From sequence record PQ433351.1: DNA of 44,261 nucleotides, one strand, 5' to 3'. The notes below the pieces were generated by a model. The model ran no database searches and had not been told where the DNA came from. It saw nothing but the letters and a program-made list of their open reading frames with translations. Origin of the DNA: Escherichia phage vB_Ec-G9. This document shows positions 3,358 through 43,381 of this stretch, one piece after another. Each line of letters starts with the position of its first letter. The stretch's first letter is position 1. Both the position numbers and the translations under genes were made by a program.

Positions 3358-3465
3358 ATGCCACGTGATTATGATTCTGATTGGGACTATTATGACTCAA
3401 TGAATCCAAAACCCGAACGTTCAGATGATTACTACGAAACAGAGGCAATGTATGAAGACTATTGA
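3358..3465 (+). CDS. very acidic Asp/Tyr-rich micro-protein (35 aa)
   Basis: RBS GGAGG upstream of ATG 3358; sequence MPRDYDSDWDYYDSMNPKPERSDDYYETEAMYEDY; overlaps DNA polymerase start. Confidence 0.3.
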   Translation: MPRDYDSDWDYYDSMNPKPERSDDYYETEAMYEDY

Positions 3466-5998
3466 TTGGAAGAAGGAGGCAGAAGGTCGTATCCTCGTGA
3501 TGGATGCGGAAGCTAAAGGACTCCTTGACGCTATCCGATATGGACACCGTGAAGATGTGCATATCATTTGCTGCATGGATTTGCTTACTACCGAGGAGTT
3601 TCTCTTCTTTGACCCGTATGAGATGCGTGACCCTGAAGCAAGAGAACGCCTGAAGGAATGGGAAGGTCATCAAGATGGAACCTTGGTTGACGGTGTTAAC
3701 TTCCTGAAGCATTGTGAAGCTATTGTGTCACAGAACTTCCTAGGGTATGACGGCCTTCTCTTTGAGAAGGCATTCCCTGATATTTGGAAAGGCTTTAACT
3801 ATACCGAGAAGCGCGGTAAGGGCAGACTCCGTGCTGACCTGTGTCCTATCCGTGTTGTAGATACGCTGGTGATGAGTCGTCTGCTAAACCCAGATAGACG
3901 CCTTCCTCCGCAAGCATATGCCAAAGGCATGGGTAACGTCGCCCCTCACTCAATTGAGGCGCACGGCATCCGTATAGGCCGCTATAAACCAGAGAACAAG
4001 GACTGGTCTAAACTAACTGACCACATGGTTCACCGTGTACGTGAAGACGTGGCAATTGGTCGTGACTTTTTCCTATGGCTTTACAACGGAGAGTGGACGG
4101 AGCACAAACGCCGTGGCGTGAACAAACGTACTGGCCTAGGGATTGAGACAGCCTTCCACATGGAGTCCATTGTGGCGCTGGAGATGAGCCGTCAGGCAGA
4201 GCGTGGATTCCGTCTGGATATTGACAAAGCACTAGCGCGATGCGAAGAACTGGACGCTAAGATTGATGAGACAGTCGCAGCGTTCCGCCCTCACATGCCT
4301 ATGCGTATCAAGTCTAAACCTTTTAAACCGGAAGAAAAGAATGAAGTATGCCAACGCGCAAATGAGTATGGAGCTAGCAACAATATACCTACTGTCCTTG
4401 ACCCCTCACACTTTCTTCATGCCGAGAGACGAGGAGATCGCAAGACAGTATGGAGTGTCACTACTAAGTCTGGTGATTGGTCGGCTAGTGTCAAGAAAGA
4501 CTTTCCTCACCTTAGAGGAAACCGTAATGACACGCCAAGCATCAAGTGGATTGGCGCTTACTCGCCTGTTACTTTCGAAGAGATTCCCTTGGGTAACAGG
4601 GATACAGTTAAGCAAGTGCTCTATGATTATGGATGGAAAGGTGTTGAATTTAACGATACCGAGCAAGCGCATCTCGATGAGCACGGAGTGTTACCCAAAC
4701 CTTGGAGTGGTAAGATAAATGAAAAGTCCCTTACTTTATGGCAAGAAAGAGCCGCACGTGAAGGTAAAACAGTCCCTGATTGGTGCTTGGGTATCGCTGC
4801 ATGGTACATACTCGTATCCCGTCGTGGTCAGATACTCAACCGTGGTGACGTTGAAGCCTTCAACGAGAAGGGAACGTGGCCCTCGCAGGCTGGTGTACGA
4901 AAGTGTCGCGGCCTTGTACCTGTAGCATTCAACAAGGAGCTAGGAATCAATGCGCAGCAATACTACGAGAGGTACGGATGTTGGCCTACGTCTGACAAAG
5001 ATGACGGAGAGTGGCGTGTTCCAGCTGTTGCTATTAGCATTGGCACTTCTACGTTCCGTATGCGTCATCGTAACGTGGTTAATATTCCTGCCCGTGGCTT
5101 GTATCCTTTACGTGATTTATTCATAGCAGGGAAAGGCAAGCTAATCCTTGGTTGTGACGGTGCAGGTCTTGAACTGCGTGTCCTGTCTCACTTCATGAAT
5201 GACCCTGAGTACCAAGAGATTGTACTGCACGGTGATATTCATACGCATAACCAGATGAAGGCTGGTCTTCCTAAGCGTGATATGGCGAAGACGTTTATAT
5301 ACGCCTTCCTCTATGGCTCTGGTATAGCCAACCTTGCAGCAGTATGTGGTGTTACTGAGGAAGAAATGAAGGAAGTTGTGGCAAGATTCGAGATTGAACT
5401 ACCATCTCTTGCACGTCTTCGTGAGAATGTTATCGCACAAGGTAACAAGTTTGGCTACCTGCAAGCACCTGATGGACATTGGGGTCGCATCCGCATGTCT
5501 GGTGGTGAACTTAAAGAGCACACGATGCTTAACGTATTACTCCAGATGACTGGCTCTTTGTGTATGAAATATGCATTAGTCAAGGCATTTGCAGTAATGC
5601 GCAAGGAAGGTGTAGCCTTGGATGCTATGGGAAATCCTTGTGGTGTGGCTAACGTGCATGATGAAATCCAGATGGAAGTTCCTGAAGAGGAGGTCTTGTA
5701 TCTTAACTACGACCTACCTTTCACCTTAGATGGGTTCGAAACAGAGAAGGTTGCCGTGAAAGCAGTGTTCGATGCAGAGGAGAAACGTGTTCATGTGGAT
5801 TCTGAAGGACGTATGTGGTCTGCTGCAAACCTAGTTAGTGTTGATGCTGATGCTGGTGTATTGCATTGCCAGCGCCGTTATCACCGTGCAGGTCATATCA
5901 TTGCCGACGCCATGACTTGGGCAGGGCAGTATCTGAAGATGCGTTGCCCGATGGCAGGCGAATATAAGATTGGCGCAAGTTGGAAGGAAACACACTGA
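3452..5998 (+). CDS. family A DNA polymerase with 3'-5' exonuclease domain (T7 gp5-like)
   Basis: Exo motif ILVMDAEA near N-terminus; pol motifs DGAGLELRV, KTFIYAFLYGSG, VHDEIQ; start placed at ATG 3452 (RBS GAGG) rather than ORF-track 3425. Confidence 0.9.
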   Translation: MKTIDWKKEAEGRILVMDAEAKGLLDAIRYGHREDVHIICCMDLLTTEEFLFFDPYEMRDPEARERLKEWEGHQDGTLVDGVNFLKHCEAIVSQNFLGYDGLLFEKAFPDIWKGFNYTEKRGKGRLRADLCPIRVVDTLVMSRLLNPDRRLPPQAYAKGMGNVAPHSIEAHGIRIGRYKPENKDWSKLTDHMVHRVREDVAIGRDFFLWLYNGEWTEHKRRGVNKRTGLGIETAFHMESIVALEMSRQAERGFRLDIDKALARCEELDAKIDETVAAFRPHMPMRIKSKPFKPEEKNEVCQRANEYGASNNIPTVLDPSHFLHAERRGDRKTVWSVTTKSGDWSASVKKDFPHLRGNRNDTPSIKWIGAYSPVTFEEIPLGNRDTVKQVLYDYGWKGVEFNDTEQAHLDEHGVLPKPWSGKINEKSLTLWQERAAREGKTVPDWCLGIAAWYILVSRRGQILNRGDVEAFNEKGTWPSQAGVRKCRGLVPVAFNKELGINAQQYYERYGCWPTSDKDDGEWRVPAVAISIGTSTFRMRHRNVVNIPARGLYPLRDLFIAGKGKLILGCDGAGLELRVLSHFMNDPEYQEIVLHGDIHTHNQMKAGLPKRDMAKTFIYAFLYGSGIANLAAVCGVTEEEMKEVVARFEIELPSLARLRENVIAQGNKFGYLQAPDGHWGRIRMSGGELKEHTMLNVLLQMTGSLCMKYALVKAFAVMRKEGVALDAMGNPCGVANVHDEIQMEVPEEEVLYLNYDLPFTLDGFETEKVAVKAVFDAEEKRVHVDSEGRMWSAANLVSVDADAGVLHCQRRYHRAGHIIADAMTWAGQYLKMRCPMAGEYKIGASWKETH

Positions 5999-8135: not shown

Positions 8136-8159
8136 ATTTACTGGACACTATAGAAGAGA
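8136..8159 (+). promoter_or_regulatory. phage RNAP promoter
   Basis: TATTTACTGGACACTATAGAAGAG. Confidence 0.8.
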
Positions 8160-8207: not shown

Positions 8208-8585
8208 ATGTTCAAGATTGAAACTATCGTAAACCGTGTTGTTAAAGGTGCTGCTCTGGTATCCGTTGAGTCTTTCATTATCGTCGATGAAGCTGATCAA
8301 CTGGTAGCTGGTACTAAGGCTTACGATACCCGTGAAGAAGCTCAGGCTAAGATTGACAGCATGGGTAACTTCGCTGCTGGTCTGGAGTTCGCTCGCGCTT
8401 GCTTCCCTGAGCAGGCTGACAAAGCTCAGATTGGTAAGGCTAATATCGTAGCTGAATATCTGGATTGGATTGCTGCTGGTAAGCCGGTGAAAGAAGTTAA
8501 GTCTGCTGAAGAAGCTGAAGCTCAGGCGGCAGAAGAAGTAGCTGCACCGGTAGATGCTCCGGTAAGCGAAGAAGAAGAGTTTTAA
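8208..8585 (+). CDS. highly expressed small protein with acidic C-terminal tail ending EEEEF (125 aa)
   Basis: Strong RBS AAAGGAGA; codon usage like capsid gene; followed directly by terminator; function unknown. Confidence 0.7.
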   Translation: MFKIETIVNRVVKGAALVSVESFIIVDEADQLVAGTKAYDTREEAQAKIDSMGNFAAGLEFARACFPEQADKAQIGKANIVAEYLDWIAAGKPVKEVKSAEEAEAQAAEEVAAPVDAPVSEEEEF

Positions 8586-8587
8586 TT

Positions 8588-8625
8588 GATGCCCTGTCTG
8601 CCTTAGTGTAGGCAGGGTCTTTTGC
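8588..8625 (+). terminator. intrinsic terminator (conserved twin of 18032)
   Basis: ATGCCCTGTCTGCC-TTAGTGTA-GGCAGGG followed by TCTTTTG; near-identical element after capsid gene. Confidence 0.65.
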
Positions 8626-8649: not shown

Positions 8650-8955
8650 ATGCCGACTATTAAATCTCGTTTAGTAGCAGACTATGTGTATGGTCGTGAC
8701 TTAAAGTTAATGCAAGATTACTTTAAAGTAATCATCCTGCTGGATGGAGAAGTGTTTCACACTAAAACATTCACCCTTCCTGAATTGTTTGATTTAGGTT
8801 ATTGGGGTTATACATATCAGGCCATAGCAGACAAGGTGCTACTCAGTGTATTAGAGGAGTGGCCTACATGCGACCAAACTTCGACTTCGGAGCTACAGTA
8901 TCGGAAGACAATAATCTCATCTTGTGGCCAACTGAAGGTAATCGAATCGCTTTAA
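8650..8955 (+). CDS. hypothetical ORF overlapping exonuclease start (101 aa)
   Basis: ATG 8650 with upstream GGAG; overlaps next gene by 88 nt in another frame, so uncertain. Confidence 0.3.
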   Translation: MPTIKSRLVADYVYGRDLKLMQDYFKVIILLDGEVFHTKTFTLPELFDLGYWGYTYQAIADKVLLSVLEEWPTCDQTSTSELQYRKTIISSCGQLKVIESL

Positions 8956-9896
8956 TAGATGCTGATATGTTACCTTACATCGTCGGGTATACAATCAGTG
9001 ACATGACTTATGTACGAGCTACAACTCGTGTTAAGTCAGGACAAGTCCCATCAATCAAAGATACCCCTGAGTGTAAGCAAGCGTGTGACCGTGTGAACTC
9101 CTTGCTTAACTCTTGGGTGTATGCAGCAGAGTGTGATGCTGCTAAGTTATTCATGACGAAATCAGAAGCTAACTTCCGTGTCCGCCTAGCATTCACCAAG
9201 CCTTACAAGGGTCAACGTAAGACCGAGAAGCCTCCATTCTTCTATGAATTGCGAGAGCATCTCTTAGAGGTTCATGGTGCAATCTTGGCAGATGGAGAAG
9301 AGGCTGATGACCTCATGAGCATTGCACAATGGGACAGCCACCGCCGCTTCCAGCAAGATACAGGTAACGAGTTCCCTATCGGTAGTCCAGAGCATAAAGC
9401 ATTCTCTGATACTTGCATCGTTTCCTTAGATAAGGATTTGATGATTGTTCCCGGTTGGCATCTTCAGCCGGGTCAAGAGAAGAAATGGGTAGAGCCTATG
9501 GGTTGGCTTGAGTTACGCCGTAAGGCTAATGGTCAGGTTAAAGACCTTAAAGGTGCTGGCCTCATGTTTCATTATGCACAGATGATTATCGGTGATGATA
9601 TTGATAACTATGCTGGCATACCTGGACGTGGTGCTAGATACGCCTATGATCTTCTCAAAGATTGTAAGACAGAGAAAGAGTTGTACATGGCAGTGCTTGG
9701 TGCTTACAAGGCTAAGTTCGGACATGGACAAGTTAAGATTAAGAATTACCGAGGGGGTTATCGTATCGGCAAGGCTTTTGACCTGATGCTCGAATGTGGT
9801 CGCCTAGCTCACATGGCAAGATTCAAAGGTGATATATGGCGAGCCGATAAGAACCCAATCTTGTGGGGAGATGATGCGGAATGGTTAGCAAATTAA
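8868..9896 (+). CDS. 5'-3' exonuclease (T7 gp6-like, FEN family)
   Basis: N-terminal IALIDADML and YKGQRK, EEADD motifs parallel T7 gp6 ILVMDGDWL / YKANRK / EGDD; start at ATG 8868 (RBS GAGGAG). Confidence 0.8.
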   Translation: MRPNFDFGATVSEDNNLILWPTEGNRIALIDADMLPYIVGYTISDMTYVRATTRVKSGQVPSIKDTPECKQACDRVNSLLNSWVYAAECDAAKLFMTKSEANFRVRLAFTKPYKGQRKTEKPPFFYELREHLLEVHGAILADGEEADDLMSIAQWDSHRRFQQDTGNEFPIGSPEHKAFSDTCIVSLDKDLMIVPGWHLQPGQEKKWVEPMGWLELRRKANGQVKDLKGAGLMFHYAQMIIGDDIDNYAGIPGRGARYAYDLLKDCKTEKELYMAVLGAYKAKFGHGQVKIKNYRGGYRIGKAFDLMLECGRLAHMARFKGDIWRADKNPILWGDDAEWLAN

Positions 9897-10282
9897 AATC
9901 ATCTGAGGTAGCAGCTTATAAGAGGGAATTGCTAGAGAAGCAAGGATGGAAGTGCCCCCTATGTGGCGGCAGTCTCAAGGCTGTTACTCCTATAAACCGT
10001 GTACTTGACCATGACCATGAGACAGGATTCTGCCGTGCTGTTGTATGCCGAGGCTGCAATGGTGCAGAAGGAAAGATTAAGGGTGTTATCTCTGGTTACG
10101 GTAAGGCGGGTAACAACCGTTACTTCCAGCTTCAATGGTTAGAGCGACTATATGAATACTGGAAGTTACATAGTACGCCTCAGACAGATAAGTTATATCA
10201 CAAACATCAAACGGAGGCAGAGAAGCGCGAGGCTAAGAACCGTAAGGCACGCCTTGCTTATGCAAGAAAGAAAGGAGTATGA
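9881..10282 (+). CDS. endonuclease VII-type Holliday junction resolvase
   Basis: CPLCG...DHDHETG...CRGCN zinc/HxH motif pattern typical of T4 endo VII family. Confidence 0.75.
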   Translation: MVSKLKSSEVAAYKRELLEKQGWKCPLCGGSLKAVTPINRVLDHDHETGFCRAVVCRGCNGAEGKIKGVISGYGKAGNNRYFQLQWLERLYEYWKLHSTPQTDKLYHKHQTEAEKREAKNRKARLAYARKKGV

Positions 10283-10283
10283 T

Positions 10284-10715
10284 ATGGACTGTATAGACCA
10301 CGGGCATTATAAGTGCTTAAATCAATTAGGTTACTACAGGTCGTGGCATAAACCTAGTAAGAAGTTGCAATTACTTCATCGCGTGGTCTATGCAGAGCAC
10401 CACGGCCTTTCTATAGAGGATATAAAGGATGTAGTGATTAGACACACTTGTGATAATGCAAGATGTATAAACCCTGCACACTTAATATCTGGTACACAGC
10501 AGGACAACATTCAAGACATGATAGGTAGAGGCAGGCGTGCTAGCTTTGCAGGCGAAAAGAATAATCGCGCTAAACTGACTTGGGATGTTGTACGTGCTAT
10601 CAGGGCAACATATGTTGCTAATAAGAAAGGTGAGAGGTTACGACTAGCTAAGCTATATAATGTCTCACCTGCTACCATTAGTGATATTGTAAGCGGGAGG
10701 GTTTGGAAAGAATAA
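10284..10715 (+). CDS. HNH homing endonuclease
   Basis: LHRVVYAEHHG ... VIRHTCDNARCINPAHL (HNH_3-like) plus C-terminal DNA-binding tail; RBS AAAGGAG. Confidence 0.8.
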   Translation: MDCIDHGHYKCLNQLGYYRSWHKPSKKLQLLHRVVYAEHHGLSIEDIKDVVIRHTCDNARCINPAHLISGTQQDNIQDMIGRGRRASFAGEKNNRAKLTWDVVRAIRATYVANKKGERLRLAKLYNVSPATISDIVSGRVWKE

Positions 10716-11722
10716 TGGGTAAGATTAGAAACTTGTTTACTAATAAGGAGGTAGAAGAAGCAGTTGAAAGTGCAAAGCGCGATGATGGCACTATCAACTA
10801 TCGCCTGATGGCGTCTATTCTCTCAGATAACACACATGGGACTACAGTTACAAGGCAGCTTGCAAAGTATTGGGCCAAACAGTTTGAAAAGCGGAAGAAG
10901 AATGGCGAGGCGTATGAAACCTTGGCTATTGCGAACCGTGCTATCAAAGAAGAACGTAAGCTCAGGACTCCTGACCGCTACGAGGATTTGGCTATTGTAC
11001 CATTGCCTGACTCGCCTCATCGAAGTGTATTGGTAATACCTGACACCCATGCACCTTATGAGCATCCAGATACATTAGAGTTTCTGGCAGCGGTGGCAGC
11101 ACGTTACCGTCCAGACACTGTAATTCATCTTGGTGATGAGGCGGACAAGCACGCACTTTCATTCCATACGTCAGATCCTAATCTGGATTCTGCTGGTATG
11201 GAGTTAGAGAAGGCTCGTATCTTCATGCGTAAATTACATAAGATGTTCCCTGTAATGCGCATCTGCCACTCTAATCATGGCTCCTTACATTTCCGTAAGG
11301 CCAGTGCTCATGGCATCCCTGTGCAATACCTGCGCACCTACCGTGAAGTCTTCTTCCCGCAGGGAGGTGGCGACCAGTGGGATTGGCAGCATACGCACGT
11401 CCTTGAGTTGCCGAATGGTGAACAAGTGGCATTCAAGCATCAACCTGCTGGCTCTGTCCTAGCAGATGCAGCGCATGAGCGTATGAACCTTGTGTGTGGT
11501 CACTTGCACGGTAAGATGTCTGTGGAGTACGCACGTAATACACATGAACAGTATTGGGCTGTGCAAGGTGGCTGCTTAATTGATGAGTCATCCCGTGCAT
11601 TTGCCTATGGGCGTGAGTCTAAATACAAGCCAGCATTAGGTTGTGTGGTTATTCTGGAGGGTGTACCTCATATTGTCCCGATGCAAACCAATAGCGACAA
11701 CCGTTGGATTGGCAAGATTTAG
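10715..11722 (+). CDS. calcineurin-like metallophosphoesterase
   Basis: VIPDTHAPY ... HLGDEADKH ... CGHLHG: DxH / GDxxD / GHxH metallophosphatase motifs. Confidence 0.75.
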   Translation: MGKIRNLFTNKEVEEAVESAKRDDGTINYRLMASILSDNTHGTTVTRQLAKYWAKQFEKRKKNGEAYETLAIANRAIKEERKLRTPDRYEDLAIVPLPDSPHRSVLVIPDTHAPYEHPDTLEFLAAVAARYRPDTVIHLGDEADKHALSFHTSDPNLDSAGMELEKARIFMRKLHKMFPVMRICHSNHGSLHFRKASAHGIPVQYLRTYREVFFPQGGGDQWDWQHTHVLELPNGEQVAFKHQPAGSVLADAAHERMNLVCGHLHGKMSVEYARNTHEQYWAVQGGCLIDESSRAFAYGRESKYKPALGCVVILEGVPHIVPMQTNSDNRWIGKI

Positions 11723-11742
11723 TTGACACTATAGAACAAAGG
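11717..11742 (+). promoter_or_regulatory. phage RNAP promoter (variant -12 to -10 GTT)
   Basis: GATTTAGTTGACACTATAGAACAAAG. Confidence 0.7.
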
Positions 11743-11822: not shown

Positions 11823-12326
11823 ATGTCACACTATGAATGTAAGAAGTGTCATAAGCGTTATGATTACTGTACTTGTGGTCAAGAGAAAACATCTTTTAAA
11901 GTTGGAGACAAGGTATTTCGTAATGAAAAAGATTCGATTCCTTGGAATCAATACTGCAAAGAAGCTGGTATTGACCCTGATAGCCCTGTAACCATAGATG
12001 ATATTGATGGCATTAACTTGTGCTTTCGTGAGGTGAGGGGTACAGGTTGGGATTCCAAAAAATTCAAACTTGCATCTGATAAGTTAGACAACAATATGGT
12101 AACTCAGCCTAAGCACTACGAGTTCTTTGATGGCGTAGAAGCAATTACTATCATCGCCCGTAGTATGACCGAGAAGCAATTCGCGGGGTATTGCATGGGT
12201 AATGCTTTGAAGTATCGTCTGCGTGCAGGTAAGAAGTTCAATACTGAAGAAGACCTGAAGAAAGCAGACTACTACAAAGAGTTATTCCAGAAGCATCGTC
12301 ACGAATGTATTGATGAGGATATTTGA
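11823..12326 (+). CDS. hypothetical protein with N-terminal Cys-rich zinc-ribbon-like segment (167 aa)
   Basis: RBS GGAGG before ATG 11823; CKKCHKRYDYCTC; conserved-looking C-terminal block GYCMGNALKYRLRAGKK. Confidence 0.6.
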   Translation: MSHYECKKCHKRYDYCTCGQEKTSFKVGDKVFRNEKDSIPWNQYCKEAGIDPDSPVTIDDIDGINLCFREVRGTGWDSKKFKLASDKLDNNMVTQPKHYEFFDGVEAITIIARSMTEKQFAGYCMGNALKYRLRAGKKFNTEEDLKKADYYKELFQKHRHECIDEDI

Positions 12327-12327
12327 T

Positions 12328-13275
12328 ATGAATATCTTTGAGTTCCTAGGTCTTCCAGAAGACCACCGCAATCACCCATTCATGCTGGTGAAGCATCGCG
12401 GTGAAGTTCCTGAGAAGAAATTAACTTTTCCATGTTATGCACAGGTGAAACGAGATGGAATATTCAGTGCTGTTGTGGTGCGCAATGATGGTGCTGTTGC
12501 CATCTTTGGTCGTACTGGTAAGAAGCTCGCAAATGTTGAATCCTTGGAAAAGACATTTAGTTTATTTCCTGTCGGGTTGTATCTTGGTGAGTTGCAATCT
12601 ATGGCTGTTGATGTTTATCTTGAAGCTCTGTCAGGAGTGGTAAACCCTAATCGTACAGAGCCACTTGACTTCATAGGCCAGCAGATTAAAGACAACCTGT
12701 ATATCGACTTCTTCGATATGTTAACTATTAAGGCATTCCATGATGGATTCACTGATGTTTCTTATCTCAAACGTTACGATGCTTTACATCGTCGCATCGG
12801 CGCTCATCTTAGCGGGTACAACGCTATCCTTCCTATTACTCCTTGCCATAATGAGCGAGAAGTTGAAGCGTTTGCGCAAGAGCAGATAGACGCAGGCCGA
12901 GAGGGTGCTGTATTCAAACTGGACTGCGATTATGAAGCAGGCCACAAAGGTTATCGTCAGACTAAAGAAGTCCGTAAGGTAACTTATGACCTTACTTGTA
13001 TTGGCTTTGAAGAAGGTAAAGGTAAGTACAAAGGTAAGGTAGCTAACCTCATTTTCAAATGGAAAGGAGGCAAGACAATCAAAGCTATGTTAGGTAAAGG
13101 GTGGACTCATGCAGATGCAGAACAGATGTTCCACGACATTAAACATGGTGGACGATTGAATGTCATTGGTAAAATCTTTGAAGTCAAAGGTCTTCAGGAT
13201 TCAAGCAAGGGCAACATTCGTCTGCCCAAAGCGGGAGAATTAAGACATGACAAAGATGAACCAGATTTCTTTTGA
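12328..13275 (+). CDS. ATP-dependent DNA ligase
   Basis: Motif I KRDG (AQVKRDGIFS), EGAVFK motif; size and position fit phage ligase. Confidence 0.8.
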   Translation: MNIFEFLGLPEDHRNHPFMLVKHRGEVPEKKLTFPCYAQVKRDGIFSAVVVRNDGAVAIFGRTGKKLANVESLEKTFSLFPVGLYLGELQSMAVDVYLEALSGVVNPNRTEPLDFIGQQIKDNLYIDFFDMLTIKAFHDGFTDVSYLKRYDALHRRIGAHLSGYNAILPITPCHNEREVEAFAQEQIDAGREGAVFKLDCDYEAGHKGYRQTKEVRKVTYDLTCIGFEEGKGKYKGKVANLIFKWKGGKTIKAMLGKGWTHADAEQMFHDIKHGGRLNVIGKIFEVKGLQDSSKGNIRLPKAGELRHDKDEPDFF

Positions 13276-13466: not shown

Positions 13467-13595
13467 ATGGAGATGCTTGAGATGATTCTCAAGCCTTCTT
13501 CTCCGAAGGTGACTAAGACTCATGAAGAGTTAATCGTTGATGAAGTGAAGCGTTACATCATGGATTGTGTCAGAGCACAACTGGTGGTCCAATGA
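13467..13595 (+). CDS. hypothetical small protein (42 aa)
   Basis: ATG 13467 with GAAGGA upstream; stop overlaps next start. Confidence 0.3.
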   Translation: MEMLEMILKPSSPKVTKTHEELIVDEVKRYIMDCVRAQLVVQ

Positions 13596-14053
13596 TACGT
13601 CCAGCTTCCTTCCTAGATATTCCTGAGATTATAAACCTTGGGAATAAATATGTGGAAGAGGAAGTCAAGGTAGTGGCCCATCACTCAGCCTCATGGAATG
13701 TAGAACAAAGCGCGCATAACCTTTGCGCATCTCTTAGTAGAGAAGATTTATTCCTATGGGTTGCTGTAGATGAAGGGCGGATTGTAGGGTTCCTGTGGGC
13801 TGGCTATCACGAGTTGGGCCCTTGGACACCTGTAAGGGTTGCCTCTGACATTCTCTTTTATATTATACCAGAGAAGCGAGGAACCCTACTTGGTATGCGT
13901 CTCATCAAAGCCCTAAAGCAATGGGCTAGTGATAATGAATGCTCTGAGGTTCGCCTGTCTATCGCCTCTGGTATTAATGAAGAACGTGTCGGACGTATGT
14001 ATAAGCGACTTGGCTTTGAACCGTTTGGCACTGTGTACAACCTGAAGTTCTAA
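13592..14053 (+). CDS. GNAT-family N-acetyltransferase
   Basis: GNAT-like core IVGFLWAG ... EKRGTLLGMRLIKAL ... YKRLGFEPFG. Confidence 0.65.
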   Translation: MIRPASFLDIPEIINLGNKYVEEEVKVVAHHSASWNVEQSAHNLCASLSREDLFLWVAVDEGRIVGFLWAGYHELGPWTPVRVASDILFYIIPEKRGTLLGMRLIKALKQWASDNECSEVRLSIASGINEERVGRMYKRLGFEPFGTVYNLKF

Positions 14054-40753: not shown

Positions 40754-43381
40754 ATGCAAGACTTACACGCTATTCAACTTCAACTTGAAGAAGAAATGTT
40801 TAACGGCGGTATCCGTCGCTTTGAAGCGGACCAACAGCGCCAGATTGCATCCGGTAATGAATCAGACACGGCATGGAATCGCCGCTTATTGTCCGAGTTA
40901 ATTGCGCCAATGGCTGAAGGTATTCAGGCATACAAGGAAGAGTATGAAGGTAAAAGAGGCCGTGCACCGCGTGCATTAGCTTTCATTAACTGCGTAGAAA
41001 ATGAAGTGGCAGCGTATATCACGATGAAAATCGTTATGGATATGCTGAACACGGATGTAACCTTGCAGGCTATAGCCATGAATGTAGCTGACCGCATTGA
41101 GGACCAAGTACGTTTTAGCAAGCTGGAAGGTCACGCCGCCAAATACTTTGAGAAAGTTAAGAAGTCACTTAAGGCAAGTAAGACTAAATCATATCGCCAT
41201 GCGCACAACGTAGCGGTCGTGGCTGAGAAGTCAGTAGCTGACCGTGACGCTGATTTCTCTCGCTGGGAGGCGTGGCCTAAAGATACCTTGCTACAAATCG
41301 GTATGACCTTGCTAGAAATACTGGAAAATAGTGTATTCTTCAATGGTCAGCCTGTCTTTCTTCGCACCTTGCGCACTAATGGTGGCAAGCATGGCGTTTA
41401 CTACTTACAGACTAGCGAACACGTAGGTGAATGGATAACTGCATTTAAAGAGCACGTAGCTCAGCTGAGTCCAGCCTATGCACCTTGCGTTATTCCTCCG
41501 CGTCCGTGGGTTTCTCCGTTTAATGGTGGCTTTCACACCGAGAAGGTGGCGAGTCGTATTCGTCTGGTTAAAGGAAACCGCGAGCACGTCCGCAAGCTGA
41601 CCAAAAAGCAAATGCCAGCGGTTTACAAGGCTGTTAACGCTTTGCAGGCGACTAAGTGGCAGGTTAATAAAGAGGTTTTGCAGGTAGTAGAGGACGTTAT
41701 CCGTCTCGACCTTGGTTATGGTGTGCCTTCCTTTAAACCACTCATCGACCGTGAGAACAAGCCAGCTAATCCAGTGCCGTTAGAGTTCCAGCACCTGCGA
41801 GGCCGTGAACTTAAAGAGATGCTAACGCCAGAACAGTGGCAAGCTTTTATAAACTGGAAAGGAGAATGTACCAAGCTGTATACCGCTGAAACTAAGCGCG
41901 GAAGCAAGTCGGCGGCGACCGTTCGCATGGTAGGACAAGCGCGCAAGTACAGCCAGTTCGACGCGATTTATTTCGTGTATGCACTGGATAGCCGTTCACG
42001 CGTTTATGCGCAATCTAGCACGCTCTCTCCGCAATCAAACGACTTAGGCAAGGCATTGCTCCGTTTTACCGAAGGGCAGCGTCTTGATAGCGCTGAGGCG
42101 CTTAAGTGGTTTTTGGTGAACGGGGCGAATAACTGGGGTTGGGATAAGAAAACTTTTGACGTGCGCACCGCTAACGTGCTGGATAGCGAATTTCAAGACA
42201 TGTGCCGCGACATTGCAGCCGACCCGCTGACCTTCACTCAATGGGTAAATGCTGATTCCCCTTACGGCTTCCTTGCATGGTGCTTTGAATATGCGCGTTA
42301 TCTGGATGCACTGGATGAAGGCACGCAAGACCAATTCATGACGCACCTACCCGTCCATCAAGACGGTAGTTGCTCTGGTATCCAGCACTATAGCGCGATG
42401 TTACGCGATGAAGTAGGTGCGAAAGCAGTAAACCTTAAGCCTTCTGACTCCCCTCAAGATATTTATGGCGCGGTTGCGCAGGTTGTTATCCAGAAGAATT
42501 ACGCCTACATGAATGCAGATGATGCAGAGACTTTCACATCTGGAAGCGTCACACTTACAGGTGCAGAACTGCGTAGCATGGCTAGTGCGTGGGATATGAT
42601 AGGAATCACTCGCGGCCTGACCAAAAAGCCCGTAATGACACTACCTTATGGCAGCACACGTCTAACCTGCCGTGAATCAGTGATTGATTATATCGTTGAT
42701 TTGGAAGAAAAAGAGGCCCAACGAGCTATTGCCGAAGGGCGGACGGCGAATCCCGTGCACCCTTTTGATAATGACCGCAAAGACTACCTTACACCTGGTG
42801 CAGCCTACAACTATATGACGGCTTTAATTTGGCCTTCTATCTCTGAGGTTGTTAAAGCTCCTATAGTGGCGATGAAGATGATTCGCCAGCTTGCACGTTT
42901 CGCAGCTAAAAGGAATGAAGGGTTAGAATACACCTTGCCAACTGGCTTCATCTTGCAACAAAAGATAATGGCTACCGATATGCTCCGTGTATCCACTTGC
43001 TTGATGGGTGAAATCAAGATGAGTCTACAGATTGAAACTGATGTAGTGGATGAAACGGCAATGATGGGCGCTGCCGCTCCTAACTTTGTTCACGGGCACG
43101 ATGCTAGTCACCTTATATTAACGGTATGTGACCTTGTTGATAAAGGGATTACATCTATCGCAGTAATTCATGATTCTTTTGGCACTCATGCAGGCCGTAC
43201 AGCCGATCTACGCAACAGCTTAAGGGCAGAAATGGTGAAGATGTATCAAGGCCGTAATGCACTGCAAAGCCTGCTAGATGAGCACGAAGAACGCTGGTTA
43301 GTTGATACAGGAATCCAAGTACCAGAGCAAGGAGAGTTTGACCTTAACGAAATCTTAGTATCTGACTATTGCTTCGCATAA
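40754..43381 (+). CDS. single-subunit DNA-dependent RNA polymerase (T7/SP6 type)
   Basis: [39 protein letters not shown] and C-terminal SDYCFA match T7 RNAP catalytic and C-terminal motifs; 875 aa. Confidence 0.95.

Follow-up and report, generated by a model that had tools for sequence, protein, structure and literature searches.

Among the metallophosphoesterases (MPEs) of phages, the family formed by gp47 of Bxb1, gp54 of L5 and gp48 of A10ZJ24 has been linked to phage DNA replication, for which its members are required, and DNase or phosphodiesterase activity has been reported for them (PMC11795197, PMC12287305). In the case of A10ZJ24, gp48 is a toxic protein with phosphodiesterase activity that breaks down DNA both in vitro (linear, plasmid and genomic) and in vivo (the host chromosome), it is inactivated by the mutations D10G, D41V and H175D, and replication of the phage DNA depends on it in M. 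tuberculosis, though not in M. smegmatis (PMC12287305). Bxb1 gp47 serves as the recombination directionality factor (RDF) of the serine integrase, in which role it acts purely via protein binding, and its predicted structure is closest to Mre11 and PolD DP1 (PMC11795197). Phages with tyrosine integrases also possess gp47 homologues, encoded between the genes for polymerase and primase (PMC1470463), and in the gp47-type (RDF) MPEs of mycobacteriophages inteins can be located beside a conserved MPE motif (PMC5050341). Here we analyzed the MPE gene located at 10715..11722 (+ strand) in the 44,261-bp sequence PQ433351.1 of Escherichia phage vB_Ec-G9, and this whole sequence is called the window in the following. 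We see about an even chance that its product is a metal-dependent DNA phosphodiesterase of a replication/recombination or host-DNA-breakdown module. The initial annotation had offered a protein phosphatase and a nuclease/phosphodiesterase side by side; the latter is favoured by the kinship with gp47/gp48, by an N-terminal domain of the helix-turn-helix (HTH) type, by the co-transcription with exonuclease and endonuclease VII genes and by the structural matches, whereas the former fails at the signature motifs of the PPP phosphatases.

The window represents a Vectrevirus genome (K1-5/K1E/SP6-like; Autographiviridae, Molineuxvirinae) that is complete and circularly permuted, with all long open reading frames (ORFs) on the + strand. 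Many Vectrevirus records, among them those of the E. coli K1 phages vB_EcoP_C, D, R, B and K, show 94-96% identity to the 3-kb stretch around the MPE gene. The coding sequence comprises 335 amino acids (aa) plus stop and extends from the ATG at 10715 to the TAG at 11720-11722, and in the sequence TAATG this ATG overlaps the TAA with which the HNH gene upstream ends. According to the ORF list, the identity to relatives and the match to PHROG_221, it is the orthologue of gene 22 of K1-5; the protein shows 99.1% identity to its counterpart in vB_EcoP_B and 86% to K1-5 gp22. In RefSeq the orthologue is labelled 'metallophosphoesterase', and tblastn detected it in 646 phage records (620 of them with at least 80% query coverage), the hosts of which belong to Klebsiella, Escherichia, Pectobacterium, Pseudomonas, Aeromonas, Vibrio, Proteus, Salmonella and Yersinia. 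The gene is real, but it is already known and annotated.

The binuclear MPE catalytic domain covers aa 103-335 (11021..11719, +) and contains all five MPE motifs, i.e. D110-T-H112, G140-D-E-A-D144, S186-N-H-G189, H242 and G262-H-L-H265. Motif I (IPDTHAPYEH; 11036..11065, +) provides the metal ligands D110 and H112 in invariant columns, to which P114 and H117 can be added as further invariant residues, and motif II (HLGDEAD; 11126..11146, +) provides the bridging ligand D141 together with D144, again in invariant columns. Motif III (CHSNHGS; 11264..11284, +) includes N187 and H188, both found in 141/141 representatives. Motif IV (FKHQ; 11432..11443, +) with H242 and motif V (VCGHLHG; 11492..11512, +) with H263 and H265 follow, the latter aligning with CGHTH of gp47. 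Altogether, the motif residues are invariant in 39 homologues of 49-87% identity, and their conservation still amounts to 90% or more in 141 cluster representatives of 27-53% identity, among which N187, H188 and E163 are strictly invariant. Furthermore, motif II is followed by a conserved, family-specific loop and helix start (KHALSFHTSDPNLDSAGMEL; 11147..11206, +) with the invariant residues H146, S149, H151, S153, D154, P155, G161 and E163; the corresponding segment K145-HALSFHTSDPNLDSAGMEL-164 is invariant, and the model assigns it a low predicted local distance difference test (pLDDT) score of 57-64. The predicted structure shows the beta-sandwich MPE fold. The match to Pfam Metallophos (PF00149 clan) is marginal, with 22.3 bits compared to a gathering threshold of 21.5, and includes only residues 105-189, while PHROG_221 ('metallo-phosphoesterase') is matched at E 8.3e-105 with residues 1-334 on profile positions 16-358 of 367. 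To judge from these residues, the MPE is catalytically intact. The description in the initial annotation as a calcineurin-like phosphoesterase (DxH, GDxxD, GHxH) within a DNA-metabolism module is borne out by the five intact motifs, the predicted fold, PHROG_221 and the exonuclease/endonuclease VII neighbours.

The same residues bear on the possibility that the protein is mainly non-catalytic and acts either as an accessory or scaffold of the replisome, in the manner of the inactive MPE domains that eukaryotic polymerase B-subunits contain, or as a regulatory or DNA-binding factor. Such a role would be in line with the B-subunits of Pol delta, alpha, epsilon and zeta, which rank high in both structure searches, with the presence of the HTH domain and with gp47, which works as RDF by protein binding alone (PMC11795197). 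However, the metal-ligand and catalytic residues are invariant across very divergent relatives, unlike in the inactivated B-subunits. Moreover, the RDF role of gp47 needs a serine integrase; none was seen in the window phage, though no search for integrases was made there, and no integrase is annotated in the homologous 15-kb stretch of vB_EcoP_C. We regard a mainly non-catalytic function as highly improbable.

Several comparisons point to a relationship with gp47 that goes beyond the generic MPE motifs. Bxb1 gp47 itself matches PHROG_221 at E 4.5e-116 on profile positions 110-363. A hidden Markov model (HMM) derived from 140 diverse relatives of the window MPE gave 37.0 bits for gp47 with all motifs in register, as compared to 6.0 bits for lambda PP, 5.8 for E. 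coli SbcD, 3.5 for T5 A1, 2.9 for LpxH and -0.1 for YfcE, which served as controls. With hhalign, gp47 was aligned over 199 columns with a probability of 97.4% (E 1.6e-11), whereas the control probabilities were 44.6% for lambda PP, 11.9% for SbcD, 6.5% for T5 A1, 1.8% for LpxH and 0.6% for YfcE. By these profile comparisons, the window MPE is specifically related to the gp47 family. Its residues D110 and D141 and its GHxH motif align with D10, D41 and H175, the sites of the inactivating mutations in gp48; D110 aligns with D10 of gp47 as well. In addition to PHROG_221, the window MPE has the motif order, the PDTxxP[FY] form of motif I and a C-terminal G(C/H)LxD segment in common with gp47/gp54/gp48. 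Likewise, the gp47-type genes reside in a replication module near DNA polymerase and endonuclease VII genes, inteins are found in the MPE domain of homologues, and gp47 and the window MPE have Mre11 and PolD DP1 as best structural neighbours in common. Differences exist as well, since gp47 has DTQ in motif I, i.e. Q for H, and GNHD where the window MPE has SNHG.

The second line of evidence comes from the domain architecture. The N-terminal part (aa 1-85; 10715..10969, +) forms a separate helical domain that is kept in SP6-like and related clades. This tri-helical HTH-type domain (Myb/homeodomain-like) with the invariant residues L36, Y52, W53, G64 and Y67 matches DNA-binding HTH folds in the structure comparison, and it may well bind DNA. 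It is connected to the catalytic domain by a linker (aa 86-102, PDRYEDLAIVPLPDSPH; 10970..11020, +), which has no regular secondary structure in the model and is variable in the alignment. A profile search against 1.84 billion cluster representatives resulted in 3,051 matches at E<=1e-3, 774 of them at E<=1e-30. The catalytic domain is the sole part that most distant relatives have in common; many of them are stand-alone proteins of approximately 235 aa, others have different N-terminal extensions. Thus, distant relatives carry other, unrelated HTH domains at the same position or none, for example P0187, which exceeds the threshold of Pfam HTH_24 at its N-terminal position (27.4 vs 21.9 bits), or P0129, P0136 and P0152 with recognisable HTH sequences of the 'LGIP...' type. 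Such repeated, independent fusions of HTH domains to the catalytic domain hint at an action on or at DNA and represent the strongest pointer of this kind that the sequences provide. Inteins were found inserted right after the GDE of motif II in the homologues P0121, P0132 and P0152, where they comprise approximately 300 aa with a LAGLIDADG-like block (…GDE|C…N|CD.H…). Inteins are typical of proteins of replication and nucleotide metabolism. Their position inside motif II is a parallel to the mycobacteriophage gp47-type MPEs (PMC5050341).

The fusions also matter for the proposal that the MPE is a small-molecule phosphodiesterase or pyrophosphatase that reshapes nucleotide pools, with a chemistry like that of YfcE, MJ0936 or LpxH acting on deoxynucleoside triphosphates (dNTPs), nucleoside diphosphate (NDP)-sugars or diadenosine tetraphosphate (Ap4A). 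Some of these enzymes are among the good structural matches (see below). However, HTH fusions in several independent architectures are hard to explain for such an enzyme, the scores of LpxH and YfcE correspond to background with hhalign probabilities below 2%, and the characterised family members act on DNA (PMC12287305, PMC11795197). Hence, a nucleotide-pool enzyme appears quite unlikely.

At E<=10, no MPE of the PDB was detected with the single sequence, and no PDB chain at all with the 39-sequence profile or the 141-sequence profile of the MPE. Since no solved relative could be detected by sequence, the subclassification relied on fold comparison. The best structural matches were PolD DP1, YfcE, MJ0936 and Mre11/SbcD, while PPP phosphatases ranked lower; LpxH was the top Foldseek match, with a query TM score of only 0.33-0.38. 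The profile subclassification suggested in the initial annotation led to PHROG_221 and the gp47 family, and no clear assignment to a characterised subfamily of DNA-repair nucleases such as Mre11/SbcD or PdeM was obtained.

Archaeal PolD DP1 is an Mre11-like 3'-5' proofreading exonuclease. A further reading would make the PHROG_221 proteins the phage counterparts of PolD DP1 and the eukaryotic polymerase B-subunits, with an exonuclease function exerted in trans at the replisome. In addition to its primase-helicase gene (72-1988) and its single-subunit RNA polymerase gene (40754-43381), the window contains a gene for a family-A DNA polymerase (3425-5998, +) of 857 aa, compared to 704 aa in T7. 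With BLAST, its similarity to T7 gp5 falls mainly into the polymerase part at the C-terminus (35% identity, 242 aa). Pfam recognizes no exonuclease domain in the N-terminal region, but this region keeps the Exo I (VMDAEA, DxE) and Exo II (NFLGYD, NxxxYD) motifs. Because the phage polymerase keeps these two motifs, a trans-acting proofreader is not obviously needed, which weakens the idea, and we consider it rather unlikely.

The reading as a DNA phosphodiesterase would imply the following scenario. The MPE would be produced along with endonuclease VII and the 5'-3' exonuclease, the HTH domain would hold it on DNA, and as a Mn2+/Mg2+-dependent DNA phosphodiesterase it would work as exo- and/or endonuclease in phage DNA replication and recombination and/or in the breakdown of the host chromosome. 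A number of points weigh against this reading. T7, which has the same lifestyle, does without such a gene. Fold comparison cannot separate nucleases from small-molecule phosphodiesterases; the latter are equally good structural matches. Our literature searches found no functional work on the podophage orthologues of SP6, K1-5 or KP34. Moreover, the identity between gp47 and the window MPE amounts to approximately 20%, and gp47 (255 aa) has neither the N-terminal HTH domain nor the HAxSFHDSDPNLDSAG loop; the low identity and the missing family-specific loop mean that the substrate could differ from that of gp47. Finally, the biochemical record of the gp47/gp54/gp48 family is thin and partly contradictory: the DNase data on gp48 come from one study (PMC12287305), purified gp47 showed a weak 3'-exonuclease activity for which contamination was not fully excluded by the authors (PMC11795197), and elsewhere gp47 is described as devoid of phosphoesterase activity (PMC12287305).

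The genomic context was also re-evaluated. The window contains 11 SP6-type promoter cores (ACACTATAG; consensus ATTTACTGGACACTATAG), exclusively on the + strand, compared to 0.6 expected by chance. The core ATTTACTGGACACTATAG at 8136..8153 (+), identified by core match and aligned flanks, heads the unit that ends with the MPE gene. A variant core, ATTTAGTTGACACTATAG, at 11717..11734 (+) overlaps the MPE stop codon and starts the unit of the DUF3310 and ligase genes; it deviates from the consensus by ATTTAGTTG in place of ATTTACTGG. Since its ATTTAG holds the stop codon, the 3' end of the MPE gene contains this promoter. Besides the variant, the cores on the + strand are located at 1945, 2793, 6539, 7002, 8145 (within 8136..8153), 16759, 29408, 31513, 33178 and 43482. 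The position of the next promoter at its stop codon makes the MPE gene the last gene of the exonuclease/endonuclease VII unit and not a part of the ligase unit. The first gene after the promoter at 8136-8153 is a small gene (8208-8585, +), followed by the gene of the 5'-3' exonuclease (8868..9896, +), a T7 gp6 analogue that is labelled 'exonuclease' in vB_EcoP_C and shows a weak match to Pfam 5_3_exonuc. Next come the genes for endonuclease VII (9881..10282, +; Pfam Endonuclease_7, E 1.4e-12) and for an HNH homing endonuclease (10284..10715, +; Pfam HNH_3, E 4e-8). Between the small gene and the exonuclease gene we noticed a strong hairpin (8591-8618, +) of 11 bp with 6 G-C pairs and a subsequent T-run, which may serve within the unit as a partial terminator or as a processing site of the RNase III type.

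The HNH gene abuts or overlaps the stop and start codons of its neighbours. In K1-5, gp21 (endonuclease VII) and gp22 (MPE) overlap with no gene in between, and the overlap also exists in phi80-18; hence, the HNH gene in the window is to be read as an insertion. From these sequence comparisons it looks like a mobile insertion that is present in only some Vectrevirus genomes, and in many Vectrevirus records the coverage of the 3-kb query falls from 89% to 78%. Melnykvirinae likewise have the order exonuclease - endonuclease VII - MPE, and the order endonuclease VII - MPE is found in phi80-18 and Aeromonas phage R1. In Slopekvirinae the MPE gene follows the DNA polymerase gene, and in Bxb1 it is located between the polymerase and primase genes, near endonuclease VII. 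Thus, in three Autographiviridae subfamilies and in Bxb1 the MPE gene belongs to the DNA polymerase/exonuclease/endonuclease VII module, whereas the adjacency to the ligase gene is not conserved in other subfamilies. The T7 record notes that gp3 (endonuclease I) and gp6 (exonuclease) jointly carry out recombination and host-DNA breakdown, and the operon partners of the window MPE are the functional counterparts of T7 gp3 and gp6.

Downstream of the variant promoter, the DUF3310/T7 gp1.7-like gene (11823..12326, +; Pfam DUF3310, E 3e-25) and the gene of an ATP-dependent DNA ligase (12313..13275, +; Pfam DNA_ligase_A_M and DNA_ligase_OB_2) form the next unit. The product of the former, called 'nucleotide kinase' in related records, is 64% identical to T7 gp1.7 in its C-terminal 73 aa only; its N-terminal part differs from T7 gp1.7 and is Cys-rich (CKKCHKRYDYCTC), and the kinase label may be an over-transfer. 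These neighbours are relevant for the suggestion that the MPE serves in end-healing, i.e. that it removes 3'-phosphate or 2',3'-cyclic-phosphate ends and thereby lets the kinase-like protein and the ATP-dependent ligase re-phosphorylate and seal broken DNA or RNA. The MPE domain of Clostridium thermocellum Pnkp removes such ends. PdeM (TIGR04123), a ligase-associated MPE of the DNA-damage response whose gene is typically linked to an operon with ligase, Lhr-type helicase and exonuclease, gave the only match in NCBIfam; it was tried as a candidate and rejected, as it reached 21.7 bits over 33 residues only, compared to a cut-off of 150. Apart from this sub-threshold match, a polynucleotide-kinase neighbour in Aeromonas phages would be in favour of end-healing. 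However, because the linkage with the ligase gene is not conserved and a separate promoter divides the genes, the idea of a ligase-associated repair enzyme was dropped, and end-healing is considered unlikely. At the junction of the DNA-metabolism and structural genes there is also a GNAT-family acetyltransferase gene (13592-14053, +; Pfam Acetyltransf_1, E 1e-9).

Regarding the protein phosphatase, the view would be that the MPE modifies proteins of the host or the phage as a Ser/Thr (or Tyr) phosphatase like lambda NinI/PP. In GenBank, the orthologue is indeed called 'protein phosphatase 2a-like protein' in several records, e.g. MK380014.1 and OM913599.1, the superfamily is common to both proteins, and the hhalign probability of 44.6% for lambda PP extends over 73 columns. 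In contrast, the PPP signatures are missing, because the window MPE has PDTHA for GDxHG, GDEADKH for GDxVDRG and SNHG for GNHE. For this reason the label is probably wrong, and a protein phosphatase seems hardly probable at all.

The distribution of the family was analyzed in cellular and viral genomes. In a scan of 185,579 prokaryotic species, each represented by one genome, only 13 MPE loci were found, mostly on phage-like contigs of metagenome-assembled genomes. The only copy in a complete cellular chromosome is a stand-alone protein of 236 aa in Bdellovibrio sp. HCB209 (NZ_CP178618.1; locus L016, 5980-6690), and the integrase-like and FtsK/SpoIIIE-like genes around it make it probable that it resides in an integrated mobile element or prophage remnant. 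The MPE family is essentially viral, and the surroundings of the cellular loci were uninformative. Single-protein scans yielded 89 viral loci, 18 after dereplication, with diffuse neighbours that include DNA polymerase, RNA polymerase, HNH endonucleases, a nucleotide kinase, a dNTP pyrophosphohydrolase and a T7-lysozyme-like protein. This tally fits a DNA/nucleotide module of podophages and is uninformative on the substrate.

The place of the gene, as seen in 646 records from many hosts, is fixed in the core replication module and does not belong to a variable early or accessory region. The initial annotation had speculated that the enzyme degrades host signalling nucleotides, which would mean a hydrolysis of immune signals such as cyclic mono-, di- and oligonucleotides or isomers of cyclic ADP-ribose (cADPR). 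We obtained no positive evidence for this speculation, against which both the core-module position and the HTH domain pointing to DNA argue. PADLOC gave no match for the window MPE, T5 A1 is not specifically related to it, and the folds of Acb1 (2H-phosphoesterase) and Apyc1 (metallo-beta-lactamase) differ from the calcineurin-like MPE (PMC9117128). The phenotype of gp48, which depends on the host, shows that a role in counter-defence could also be exerted by another route. Overall, we judge the hydrolysis of immune signals to be very unlikely; if it were true, the MPE would be the first calcineurin-fold enzyme of the Acb1/Apyc1 kind.

The present analysis newly adds the HTH domain and the specific relationship to gp47/gp54/gp48, corrects the operon context and rejects the label of a protein phosphatase. 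Hundreds of podophages of Klebsiella, E. coli K1, Salmonella, Pectobacterium, Aeromonas, Vibrio and Pseudomonas, all of them therapeutic candidates, have kept the gene at a fixed place of the replication module, and the family is widespread and probably important for replication. The link to gp47/gp54/gp48 leads to the testable expectation that the protein is a metal-dependent DNA nuclease on which phage DNA replication relies or which boosts it, possibly depending on the host, and it also shows which residues should be mutated. Furthermore, 'HTH domain-containing DNA-module metallophosphoesterase (Bxb1 gp47 family)' would be the more accurate annotation, while 'protein phosphatase 2A-like' is unjustified.

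Compared with known systems, the MPE does not represent a new kind of system. PolD DP1 and the polymerase B-subunits have no detectable sequence relationship to it, and the N-terminal domain of DP1 is an oligonucleotide/oligosaccharide-binding (OB) fold, whereas that of the window MPE is a tri-helical HTH. For Mre11/SbcD the profile relationship is likewise lacking (SbcD 5.8 bits, 11.9%), the window MPE is much smaller and no capping domain was identified in it; a partner of the Rad50/SbcC type is not annotated in the 15-kb homologous vB_EcoP_C stretch, and no systematic search of the remaining window was made. The sequence of E. coli LpxH, the UDP-2,3-diacylglucosamine hydrolase, is also unrelated (2.9 bits, 1.8%). 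Lambda PP (NinI) and the PPP family have the superfamily and the metal-binding core in common with the window MPE, but differ by their signatures. T5 A1 is, like the window MPE, a phage protein of the MPE superfamily; it is pre-early and required for host DNA degradation (T5 record annotation; PMC7824862), and differs by its size of 556 aa, its pre-early timing, its genome context and its low profile similarity (3.5 bits, 6.5%). Finally, K1-5 gp22 and its orthologues in Vectrevirus, Zindervirus (SP6-like), Drulisvirus (KP34-like), Pokrovskaiavirus and other Autographiviridae, annotated as 'metallo-phosphoesterase' (PHROG_221), represent the same gene as the window MPE; the K1-5-type orthologues agree with it in the length of 335 aa, the N-terminal domain and the place after endonuclease VII, and the window phage differs from them by the HNH insertion.

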